A stretch of DNA of 23,695 nt from Candidatus Thorarchaeota archaeon (lineage in GTDB: Archaea > Asgardarchaeota > Thorarchaeia > Thorarchaeales > Thorarchaeaceae). Position numbers and translations under genes: made by a program. The notes under the pieces were generated by a model. The model worked only from the letters and a program-made list of their open reading frames with translations. It made no database searches and had not been told where the DNA came from. Of this stretch, positions 18,642 through 21,209 are shown in pieces. Numbering within the stretch: position 1 is the stretch's first letter; each line of letters begins with the position of its first letter. The DNA is taken from assembly GCA_046758445.1 (NCBI GenBank), contig JBHIAE010000043.1, positions 1-23,695 of the forward strand, in the 5' to 3' direction.

Positions 18642-19616
18642 CTAGGCTATTACGTCTTCCCCTGAAACATCATCCCTTGTAACTTGTGTGTCTGCGGTTG
18701 TTGCAGACACAAGTCCTCGTTCCACCGTGGTCAGGACTCTGTCCCGGATTGTTTCTCCAGAGCCAAGCATGTCAGGAATCTTATACTCTGCCACAAGCAG
18801 GTCAATCATCTTCGAAGTGGCCCTGTTCTTCACAAACATGAAGATCAAAGTGAAGTTCATGACGATCGAGAATAGAGGACCTAGAGCAACCAGGATTATG
18901 AAGATGGGAAGCCAAGGTGCATCGAGCCCAGTCGCCAGAGTTAGCTCCAGCCAGACAAGGATAATATCCACACCTGCAAAGAACTCAAGAATGTCTTCTA
19001 AATCATCGCCCACGTTGCTCAGGGAGCGGTCTCTAAGGTCGAGATGGAAGAGTCCAGCGTCCTTGATCACCCAGGGACCATAGTATAGAGCCAGTACAGT
19101 GAATGGGAGTATTGCTGTGGACAGTATAACAACCCAGCCACCGAAGTACACTATGTCGGCTGTTTCTGCTACGACCATCAGGTCGAACCCCATTACGGTG
19201 AGAGCCATTCCCACAACGAGAACGGAGCCATAGAGTGATCTTCTGAGCACTGTTCCCATGCTTTGGTCCACAGTATCAGGACTGACAAAGTACTCACCGG
19301 TGCCACGCTTGAAGAATCGATGTATTCTCAAAGGCAATGAAGCCGATCGAGGAAACTTGACGAGGATGAAACACAGTATACCTCCGACCAAAGTAGCTCC
19401 CAAAGACCCTATCAGCATCACCAACGTGTATGGACCAAGATTCGACATAGATAGGCTGATGAGTCCAAAGAAGGAGAGCACGTACAGAAGGCCCCAAGTG
19501 GACCCAACCATAATCAGCGTTGATATGATGAAACCAGCGATTAGCTCCAGAACGCTCAGCTTCTTTGCCTTCCCAATATGCTCATCGTACAACGCTGATA
19601 GTGTCTGTTGCGTCAT
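18642..19616 (-). CDS. Hypothetical multi-pass membrane protein (about 324 aa)
   Basis: About six hydrophobic segments in a long ORF. The probable start is ATG 19616 (MTQQTLS); the ORF track gives 19766. Confidence 0.75.
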   Translation of the reverse strand: MTQQTLSALYDEHIGKAKKLSVLELIAGFIISTLIMVGSTWGLLYVLSFFGLISLSMSNLGPYTLVMLIGSLGATLVGGILCFILVKFPRSASLPLRIHRFFKRGTGEYFVSPDTVDQSMGTVLRRSLYGSVLVVGMALTVMGFDLMVVAETADIVYFGGWVVILSTAILPFTVLALYYGPWVIKDAGLFHLDLRDRSLSNVGDDLEDILEFFAGVDIILVWLELTLATGLDAPWLPIFIILVALGPLFSIVMNFTLIFMFVKNRATSKMIDLLVAEYKIPDMLGSGETIRDRVLTTVERGLVSATTADTQVTRDDVSGEDVIA

Positions 19617-19875
19617 TTCTACCAACGTAACCCATGTTCGTCGGTGGTAGATAAGGATTCTCCAACTTGACTCTGAAATCGACTCAGTTTCATTTCGCAA
19701 GGTGAAACCTGATAATCCAACACAACAAGTCTCATATATCACAAGTAGCGATATGCAGCTGTCCACAGAGATGACCCTATCTTTGGTAGTCTTCGATTGC
19801 TCAAGTTCTGCAGCGGCGCAACAGAAATTGACGTCAAGAAGACGGTGAGGACAAGAAGAACCGTAGTGGTGAGCG

Positions 19876-20784
19876 ATGGTCGTCGGGTATGAGGTTTCGG
19901 AGGATGGAACCCTCCAAGAAGTGGAGATTACAAAGGCGGACCTGGACTCTCAGAAGGTAGTGTGCGTGGTTGATGATGAAACCAAGTCGATCTATCTGTG
20001 GAAGGGGAACCAGGCCGGGATCAGACGGAAGTTCATTGGAGCACGTGTAGCGACCAATCTGAGAACTGAATACGGATTCCATTTCAAAGTGAGAGCAGTC
20101 GACGAGGGTGAAGAGCCACCAACTTTCTTCACAGCCCTCGATGGAACCACAGCCGCCACACGAGTCCTGAAGCCTGGAGAACCAGCGCCACCTCCATCTC
20201 CACCTAAGCCAAAGGCCAAGGCGCCTGCGGCCGAAGCCGCTCCCTCAGCACCGCCACCGAAACCAAAGGCTGCAGCACCAAAGCCTTCAGCGGCTGCGAA
20301 GCCTCCGCCTCCCAGACCGGCAGCGGCCAGAGCAGCCCCCGCAGCTCCACCTCCAGTTGCAGCAACCTCTGGGGAGATAGACTCAATGATTCAGGAGCTG
20401 CAGGACACTGACCCTCCCGAAGGATATCAGAGAGAACTGCTGATTGTATACAATGAGTTGTTCACAGTAGCAGAGCACAAGGTCTCTGTGTTCGGTCAGG
20501 AGAAGGTTGAGAGGAAGTTTGAGAAGGTGAAGGATCCTCCCGAAGGAACCTTCATGGCGGAGGGCTTCATTCCAAGAGTGATTGTCAAAGAAGGAAGAGT
20601 GCTTGGAATCGAGCTACTCAAGGGCACTCCAGAGGCAATCCTCAGCCCCATAAAACAGGAAATGAAAGAAAGACTGGGCGACCTGATAAGCTTCTTCAGG
20701 TCGGAAACCGTTCAAGCACCCAAGAAACGTGCGAAGAAACCTGCCAAGGGTGCCAAAAAGAAGAAGAAACTCGTAGCGAAGTAA
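19876..20784 (+). CDS. Gelsolin-domain protein with Pro/Ala-rich linker, unknown C-terminal domain and Lys-rich tail
   Basis: The N-terminal ~90 aa carry a gelsolin-repeat pattern: DLDSQKVVCVVDD...IYLWKGNQAG...KFIGARVATNL...VDEGEEPPTFF. SD-like GGTGA upstream. Confidence 0.82.
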   Translation: MVVGYEVSEDGTLQEVEITKADLDSQKVVCVVDDETKSIYLWKGNQAGIRRKFIGARVATNLRTEYGFHFKVRAVDEGEEPPTFFTALDGTTAATRVLKPGEPAPPPSPPKPKAKAPAAEAAPSAPPPKPKAAAPKPSAAAKPPPPRPAAARAAPAAPPPVAATSGEIDSMIQELQDTDPPEGYQRELLIVYNELFTVAEHKVSVFGQEKVERKFEKVKDPPEGTFMAEGFIPRVIVKEGRVLGIELLKGTPEAILSPIKQEMKERLGDLISFFRSETVQAPKKRAKKPAKGAKKKKKLVAK

Positions 20785-21209
20785 TGAGTTCAACAGACGC
20801 AGACAAGGAGCGAGAGAACATGTCACAACATCTTGACCCCCAGAAGGAGAAGGAGCTTGTTGAGCTCTTGATGGGTCTAACGAATTACGCAGATTTAGAT
20901 GCTATCGCGGTGGTAAGCAAGCAAGGAGTGAAGCTGGCATATTTCGCCACAGAGGATTCTGATGCAGATCCTGATTTGATGGCAGCTGTCAGTGCTGCAC
21001 TGCTAATGACTGGCGAGATGGCTGCAGGCAAGCTGGAGCTAGGAGGTCTCTTCGAGGTCACGGTCAGGGGACAGCAGGGCTTTGCGGTTCTATCTCAAGC
21101 CGGTGAGTTCCTGTTGATGGGCTCTGCAAAAGACCTGACATCCATGGGCCTGGCAGTTACGCAGATGAGAAAGTATGCCAAGGAAGTAGGAGATCTACTT
21201 TCTAAATAG
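20784..21209 (+). CDS. Roadblock/LC7 (MglB/LAMTOR2-like) domain protein
   Basis: DAIAVVSKQGV...DLMAAVSAALL..GE.A...LELG.L.EV.VRG..G..VL...GE.LL........MGL...QMR pattern. The start overlaps the upstream stop (TAATG); alternative start 20820. Confidence 0.9.
   Translation: MSSTDADKERENMSQHLDPQKEKELVELLMGLTNYADLDAIAVVSKQGVKLAYFATEDSDADPDLMAAVSAALLMTGEMAAGKLELGGLFEVTVRGQQGFAVLSQAGEFLLMGSAKDLTSMGLAVTQMRKYAKEVGDLLSK

Follow-up and report, generated by a model that had tools for sequence, protein, structure and literature searches.

The stretch analysed here, referred to as the window, comprises 23,695 nucleotides (nt) of contig JBHIAE010000043.1 (assembly GCA_046758445.1) from a Candidatus Thorarchaeota archaeon, read on the forward strand. 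It carries two co-oriented open reading frames (ORFs), ORF A at 19876-20784 (302 amino acids) and ORF B at 20784-21209 (141 amino acids as an open frame), which encode a gelsolin-domain protein of the 1DGelX type and a roadblock/LC7 protein (Robl), respectively. Both protein families are known, the first through a biochemically characterised protein that is most likely its orthologue, and the pair that their genes form is real and deeply, not universally, conserved among the Asgard archaea. The features discerned at the locus are the following:

19876..20784, + strand: 1DGelX gene, 302 amino acids plus the TAA stop codon (88% identity to SMTZ1-83 AM324_006760, same neighbours, same architecture)
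19876..20142, + strand: gelsolin/cofilin-fold domain, residues 1-89 (phmmer against 7c2f_B, AlphaFold2, Foldseek)
20143..20367, + strand: linker rich in Pro, Ala and Lys, residues 90-164, predicted to be disordered (AlphaFold2 predicted local distance difference test, pLDDT, 37-63)
20368..20712, + strand: domain X, residues 165-279 (AlphaFold2 core pLDDT about 90; Asgard-wide profile matches)
20713..20781, + strand: polybasic tail ending in KKLVAK, residues 280-302 (AlphaFold2 pLDDT <50; LVAK kept in the Thorarchaeota loci)
20785..20819, + strand: 35-nt spacer with a Shine-Dalgarno-like GGAG at 20807-20810 (sequence reading; Thorarchaeota relatives)
20820..21209, + strand: roadblock/LC7 gene, 129 amino acids from the conserved ATG (Pfam PF03259, PDB 7f8m_A, orthologue clade with support 100/99, start conservation)

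The 1DGelX protein and its domain X

Residues 1-88 of ORF A match the Thorarchaeota ProGel chain 7c2f_B with an E value of 2e-13 (phmmer against PDB), followed by weaker matches to other Asgard and eukaryotic gelsolin domains, and the AlphaFold2 model, for which a family alignment of 26 rows was used, reaches pLDDT values of 87-96 over residues 1-80. Compared with Foldseek, the modelled domain superposes on 7c2f_B with a root-mean-square deviation of 1.0 Å over 88 residues (E 1.5e-8, target-normalised template modelling (TM) score 0.94). This bears out the gelsolin domain that a preliminary description of the locus had placed in the ORF at 19876-20784, the fold of which it had left to be checked. 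Fold and clear sequence homology are common to the ORF A N-terminus, the Thorarchaeota ProGel and 2DGel proteins and the eukaryotic gelsolin domains (7C2F, 7C2G, 7C2H, 7WHF); unlike ProGel and 2DGel, ORF A has one gelsolin domain plus domain X.

Over its full length, ORF A is 88% identical to protein AM324_006760 of Thorarchaeota SMTZ1-83, whose contig shows the same gene neighbourhood as the window, including a 129-residue Robl gene downstream. It was from the SMTZ1-83 assembly that Akil et al. (2020, PNAS; PMC7444086) took the protein they named 1DGelX, in which a gelsolin domain, a linker, domain X and a tail follow one another as they do in ORF A. Since the X profile matches once per Thorarchaeota genome, ORF A most likely encodes the orthologue of that protein, as judged from sequence. 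SMTZ1-83 1DGelX binds rabbit actin with a dissociation constant (Kd) of 7.7 µM and, on its own in vitro, nucleates, severs and bundles rabbit actin filaments without calcium dependence (PMC7444086). Given the degree of identity, the product of ORF A would be expected to bind and sever actin independently of calcium as well; the calcium control of 1DGelX that the preliminary description proposed to assay had already been shown to be absent (PMC7444086).

The linker, of about 75 residues, differs in both length and sequence across the 1DGelX family, and its repetitive sequence seems to break assemblies. A case in point is the 'chromosome' of Thorarchaeota bin8 (CP070658.1, locus L037), where a 100-N scaffold gap at L037:4289-4388 falls within the Pro/Ala linker; a loss of domain X and Robl from this genome was considered and rejected, as the gap explains their absence.

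Domain X was previously modelled as a coiled coil (PMC7444086), whereas AlphaFold2 with the family alignment yields a helix, five long antiparallel strands forming a sheet and a second, C-terminal helix of 28 residues. Its profile matches 361 of 400 genomes of the Asgard phylum and, against 1.84 billion proteins, 245 clusters, and 81 of the 86 matches of at least 240 amino acids also carry a gelsolin domain. On account of this distribution, X is a small domain, restricted to Asgard archaea and joined to a gelsolin domain in almost all cases. A convincing solved relative of its fold was found neither by Foldseek against PDB (best E 0.15, TM at most 0.19) nor by an exhaustive VIA-align search, in which Cache/PAS-like sensor domains came first with a Z score of 3.9. 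Chains containing roadblock or longin domains reach Z scores of 2.3-2.6 in VIA-align, and the idea that X might be a cryptic roadblock domain is unsupported (hhalign probability of X against Robl 1.2%). A shape search of the ESM Atlas returned mainly other Asgard X-domain clusters, one of them with SAP/HeH N-termini, and a feature search of the same resource gave no usable match.

Other observations on domain X are worth recording. The motif DPPEG occurs twice within it, at 20407-20421 (residues 178-182) and 20533-20547 (residues 220-224), each time after a helix or turn and before a run of strand, and its second P and its G vary little or not at all between Asgard classes; the two copies may be a pseudo-repeat inside the domain, or they may mark a binding motif. 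X is also found behind other N-termini, as in the SAP/HeH/Rho_N cluster of the ESM Atlas (about 387 amino acids), and some Loki-type and f19 genomes carry it in tandem (G161:C24:21895-22482, G128:C11:157350-157880), f19 being, like the other f numbers used below, our label for an Asgard family. None of these variants has a Robl neighbour.

The roadblock protein and the start of its gene

ORF B scores 38.2 bits against the Robl_LC7 family (PF03259; cut-off 23, E 1.2e-9), and its nearest solved chains are the roadblock/LC7 chains 7f8m_A (E 3e-9) and 9jue_D (E 8.8e-9), in agreement with the roadblock identity first proposed for it. We take PDB entry 7F8M to be, probably, Thor-RB or MKD1-RB. These two solved proteins are of the same full-length roadblock type as ORF B, with about 120-130 residues, and they are not described as gelsolin-linked (Tran et al., 2024; PMC10933270); ORF B differs from them in belonging to another orthologue group. 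It also keeps the C-terminal helix that is absent from LC7-type proteins (Tran et al., 2024; PMC10933270). In a maximum-likelihood tree, all linked and unlinked orthologues of ORF B group in a single clade with support 100/99, which leaves out the 12 further Robl paralogues of the window's genome, and in a profile search 367 of 400 Asgard genomes had an orthologue. ORF B is therefore a member of one Robl orthologue group that extends across nearly all Asgard archaea.

At 20782-20786 the letters TAATG join the two frames, the stop codon of ORF A sharing letters with an in-frame ATG of ORF B, and the preliminary description took this overlap to mean that the two genes are translationally coupled, with Robl starting at 20784 and comprising 141 residues. 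The overlap itself is there in the sequence: the ATG is in frame, the frame is open, and the same ATG is present in a locus 97% identical to the window (L001) and, as ATGA, in one other (L011). These three are the only loci with an ATG overlapping the gelsolin stop. A start at 20784, however, would add to Robl 12 residues that are not conserved. Across 37 Thorarchaeota loci, Robl begins on a conserved 'ATG TCN' (M-S-S/Q-H-L-D-P; one locus uses TTG), whose counterpart in the window is the ATG at 20820, 35 nt past the 1DGelX stop. This ATG is preceded at 9 nt by GGAG, in keeping with the GAGG or GGAG found about 9 nt before the conserved start in Thorarchaeota relatives, and the ATG at 20784 has no such sequence. 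An overlapping start is impossible in 27 of the 37 loci, where an in-frame stop codon interrupts the stretch from the gelsolin stop to the conserved Robl ATG. Finally, Robl as called on the SMTZ1 contig has 129 residues and starts 36 nt after the 1DGelX stop.

The conserved start, the stop codons in between, the rarity of the overlap and the SMTZ1 call together indicate that TAATG, real as it is, is most likely an accident of this lineage and not a coupling device. The true start of Robl is probably the ATG at 20820, and translational coupling through TAATG appears to us very unlikely. What these sequence comparisons support is a close linkage of two co-oriented genes; they do not support coupling by overlap.

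Conservation of the gene pair

Among the Thorarchaeota, Robl adjoins 1DGelX on the same strand in all 37 loci with DNA downstream of 1DGelX, over spacers of 11-146 nt (11-40 nt in most), and in phylum-wide searches the pair is adjacent in every genome of the Thorarchaeota family where the places of both genes are listed. The linkage extends well beyond this group. It is found in Ca. Odinarchaeum yellowstonii LCB_4, where the spacer is 2 nt, in a sister family, f28, in family f6 (4/4 genomes), for one of the two 1DGelX paralogues of Hermod-type genomes and, in the same order, in the Loki-type families f21 and f22. Families f18 and f19 show a near linkage, with a gene of 62 amino acids between 1DGelX and a long-tailed Robl of 300 amino acids. 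The intervening protein is conserved and helical, with 62-65 residues (L090:4341-4529, L089:3620-3817), and the long Robl (L090:4961-5890, L089:2137-3039) carries an extended Pro/Thr/Ser tail that ends in a conserved ...DKEAVLEALKVLGWEE motif.

Linkage and the Robl tree agree with each other, the linked orthologues forming a Thor clade and an Odin/Hermod/Loki clade and the unlinked ones a Heimdall/Hod/Wukong clade. In addition, the distributions of X and of Robl are nearly equal, both being undetected in families f24-f27. The association is specific to the two orthologue groups: the two ProGel-like genes and the 2DGel gene, which are the other gelsolin genes of the window's genome, have no Robl neighbour, and neither do the X-domain paralogues of five other genomes.

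The genes around the pair are less constant. In the window, the upstream side holds a multi-pass membrane protein gene on the other strand and, beyond it, a thiamine-type ABC transporter, and the downstream side holds genes for a class I/II aminotransferase and for a DUF6454-like protein that has a C-terminal anchor, all conserved only within the Thorarchaeota order. The divergent membrane protein gene (18642-19766, - strand) belongs to no Pfam family and adjoins 1DGelX across the whole of that order, not beyond it; its true start probably lies some 35-50 codons inside the listed ORF, the SMTZ1 gene call being 357 amino acids long. An actin gene was absent within about 4 kb of the pair in each of about 80 loci, and that of the window's genome sits on contig C1.

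Thorarchaeota, Hermod-type genomes and f6 keep the pair alone, and other lineages add a gene upstream or downstream. The upstream addition is Nnr, a bifunctional NAD(P)HX epimerase/dehydratase (YjeF_N plus Carb_kinase) involved in metabolite repair, found in Odinarchaeum, f28, f18, f19, f21 and f22 (loci L073, L075, L084-L086 and L088-L090). The downstream one is a vWA protein of 720-770 amino acids directly after Robl in the Loki-type loci L084-L086 and L088, which shows a weak CDC48_N/copine-like signal. We considered the vWA protein as a third member of the module and rejected it, given that it adjoins Loki-type pairs only and that its Thorarchaeota homologue is unlinked, on contig C11. In the window's genome, the Nnr and vWA genes lie on contigs other than that of the pair. 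As these neighbours differ by lineage and their Thorarchaeota copies are unlinked, the two-gene core is the most persistent unit of the neighbourhood.

With respect to transcription, a TATA-like box is missing from the 35-nt spacer of the window, as would be expected if transcription read through from the promoter of 1DGelX, and a scan for bacterial-type promoters and terminators found nothing above shuffled sequences. The pair also has what is commonly looked for in an operon, namely a shared strand, a short spacer and an order conserved across distant lineages, against a high microsynteny background.

This background was estimated by calling ORFs in the 1.42-Mb Odinarchaeum genome and in the window's genome and comparing neighbours by reciprocal best hits. 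Of 1761 co-oriented neighbour pairs in the Thorarchaeota genome, 248 have reciprocal best hits for both genes in Odinarchaeum, and 135 are still neighbours there (54% of those with reciprocal best hits, 7.7% of all). For opposite-strand neighbours the corresponding figures are 1226, 95 and 25 (26% and 2.0%), that is, retention is twice as frequent for co-oriented neighbours. 1DGelX itself fails the test, because the best Thorarchaeota match of the Odinarchaeum protein is a ProGel, and so the pair is not among the 135. As chance alone would retain only about 0.1% of adjacencies, that of the gelsolin and roadblock genes is certainly inherited. The opposite-strand pairs reveal, at the same time, that inherited adjacency without co-transcription is common at the Thorarchaeota-Odinarchaeum distance. 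Conservation of gene order raises the odds that two genes are functionally linked about twofold, without proving it, and, with such a high background, adjacency is supportive and not decisive.

Partnership, shared inheritance or GTPase signalling

The reading we put forward is that 1DGelX and Robl work in one process, with Robl acting as a dimeric scaffold or regulator of 1DGelX; from the gene order and the protein families involved, we hold it to be about evenly balanced between right and wrong. The main alternative is that the pair is microsynteny passed on without functional coupling, in which case 1DGelX would act on actin alone and Robl would work elsewhere, for instance in scaffolding or regulating a GTPase of another locus. 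We regard this as a serious possibility, if short of a probable one.

Several observations weigh against a partnership, and most of them are what shared inheritance would lead one to expect. First, the microsynteny background is high, with 25 of the 95 opposite-strand pairs that have orthologues in both genomes still neighbours in Odinarchaeum. Second, Nnr is an equally conserved neighbour in Odinarchaeum, Loki-type genomes, f18, f19, f21 and f28, without an obvious functional link to 1DGelX. Third, the two genes lie apart in a dozen families or more, among them the Heimdallarchaeaceae, the Hodarchaeales, another Heimdall family and the Wukong-, Frey-, Atabey- and Sifarchaeia, and both genes are kept where this has happened, the unlinked Robl orthologues adjoining housekeeping genes such as those for ProRS and S26e. 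The split lineages include Heimdallarchaeia, the class nearest to eukaryotes. Fourth, the spacers of Loki-type pairs, at about 100-180 nt, are long. Fifth, nine Thorarchaeota lineages with 1DGelX-Robl spacers of at least 64 nt (L021, L022, L023, L026, L030, L032, L033, L035 and L038) carry a AAAGGTATTTAA-like A/T box whose distance to the Robl ATG downstream is constant at 41-51 nt, probably an archaeal B recognition element (BRE)/TATA promoter that would serve Robl alone, with a short leader. Because of these boxes, co-transcription, plausible in the lineage of the window, is probably not a constant of the family. Sixth, no natural fusion of the gelsolin domain or X with Robl exists among 150 X-domain representatives. 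Lastly, recombinant 1DGelX acts on actin without a partner (PMC7444086).

Shared inheritance by itself, on the other hand, accounts less readily for the behaviour of the pair. From Thorarchaeota to Hermod-type genomes, f6 and Odinarchaeum, the two genes stay together while all other flanks change. Their orientation is always the same and their spacer is often very short, as in Odinarchaeum and most Thorarchaeota. Moreover, among the 13 Robl matches in the window's genome, only this orthologue adjoins a gelsolin gene. The two-gene module of the preliminary description is upheld as a unit conserved well beyond the Thorarchaeota and built on one Robl orthologue group. The synteny survey that it called for shows the genes adjacent in Thorarchaeota, Odinarchaeum, Hermod- and Loki-type genomes, f6 and f28; universality of the module is not borne out, given the split in Heimdallarchaeia and other lineages.

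If 1DGelX and Robl are indeed partners, the following picture would emerge. The two genes, closely linked, would probably be co-transcribed in this lineage, and 1DGelX, like its SMTZ1-83 counterpart, would be a calcium-independent severing, nucleating and bundling protein. Robl would most likely be a dimer, by likeness to the solved roadblock proteins, which form dimers that serve either as GTPase platforms (MglB, LAMTOR) or as clamps on the helix of a partner, as LC7 does on the dynein intermediate chain (PMC10933270). In the role of a scaffold for 1DGelX or of a partner regulating it, Robl might attach to domain X, to the long helix at the C-terminal end of X or to the basic tail. Such binding might dimerise 1DGelX, localise it or hold back its severing, with regulation presumably running from Robl to 1DGelX. 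In this regard, the dynein LC7/roadblock dimer seated on a helix of a cytoskeletal protein offers a plausible parallel for Robl and the C-terminal helix of 1DGelX, by analogy only. A direct contact between Robl and 1DGelX is, in our estimation, rather doubtful. A single complex prediction for domain X (residues 1-120 of the alignment rows) and Robl, run without controls, gave ipSAE scores of 0.00 and 0.00, which count neither way.

A different link was drawn in the preliminary description, where Robl, as a regulator of small GTPases in the manner of MglB or Ragulator, would make 1DGelX the effector through which GTPase or polarity signalling reaches actin. Small GTPases are numerous in Asgard genomes. 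Roadblock proteins such as MglB and LAMTOR do act as regulators of GTPases or platforms for them (PMC10933270), and the roadblock fold, with the idea of a dimeric regulator or platform, is common to ORF B and to the MglA-MglB and Ragulator/LAMTOR-Rag systems. Odinarchaeum and f28, moreover, carry a Ras-family gene on the same strand as 1DGelX and two genes upstream of it. This gene is an odd fusion of a Ras-family GTPase domain to an M20-type peptidase (L075:190-1872 in Odinarchaeum LCB_4, and L073:297-1784), it lies near the pair in these two lineages only, and Nnr stands between it and the pair. Unlike in the MglA-MglB and Ragulator/LAMTOR-Rag systems, a partner GTPase gene is missing beside the gelsolin-roadblock pair: the observation that no small GTPase gene is adjacent holds for the whole 23.7-kb window, in which no ORF of at least 100 amino acids contains a Ras-, Arf-, Rag- or MglA-type domain, and likewise for the surroundings of the Thorarchaeota, Loki- and Hermod-type pairs and of the unlinked Robl orthologues. 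Asgard GTPase genes are generally not located in roadblock operons, so that gene order cannot reveal the partners (Tran et al., 2024; PMC10933270). With no GTPase in the window, the unlinked Robl genes next to housekeeping genes and the Ras domain fused to M20 beyond Nnr, the signalling link is not sustained by the locus, and we consider it unlikely.

A more elaborate version of the partnership is that Robl is a dedicated subunit of 1DGelX, seated on X or on the C-terminal helix and tail, and lets a small GTPase from another locus control severing, an arrangement that would be ancestral to the Thor, Loki, Odin and Hermod lineages and later split in Heimdall. We consider it quite unlikely; if it were true, a regulatory link from GTPases to actin would be older than eukaryotes.

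No description of the gelsolin-roadblock neighbourhood was found in Akil et al. (2020), Tran et al. (2024), the preprint of Liu (2020) or the other literature retrieved. The 1DGelX paper contains neither the word 'roadblock' nor the word 'operon' and leaves the neighbouring Robl gene unmentioned (PMC7444086), and the Liu preprint counts three roadblock/longin families in the Asgard core gene set and reports another operon, roadblock-Rab-DENN.

Taken as a whole, the pair matters because 1DGelX belongs to the small number of Asgard actin regulators whose activity has been measured, and its conserved roadblock neighbour provides a specific hypothesis about how it is controlled, one that is cheaply tested since a construct of the SMTZ1-83 1DGelX is already available. 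Should the two proteins not interact, the locus would stand as a case of class-level Asgard microsynteny high enough to mislead guilt-by-association. Should they interact, an Asgard gelsolin would have its first accessory factor in Robl, and a function would be at hand for one of the few roadblock families of the Asgard core.

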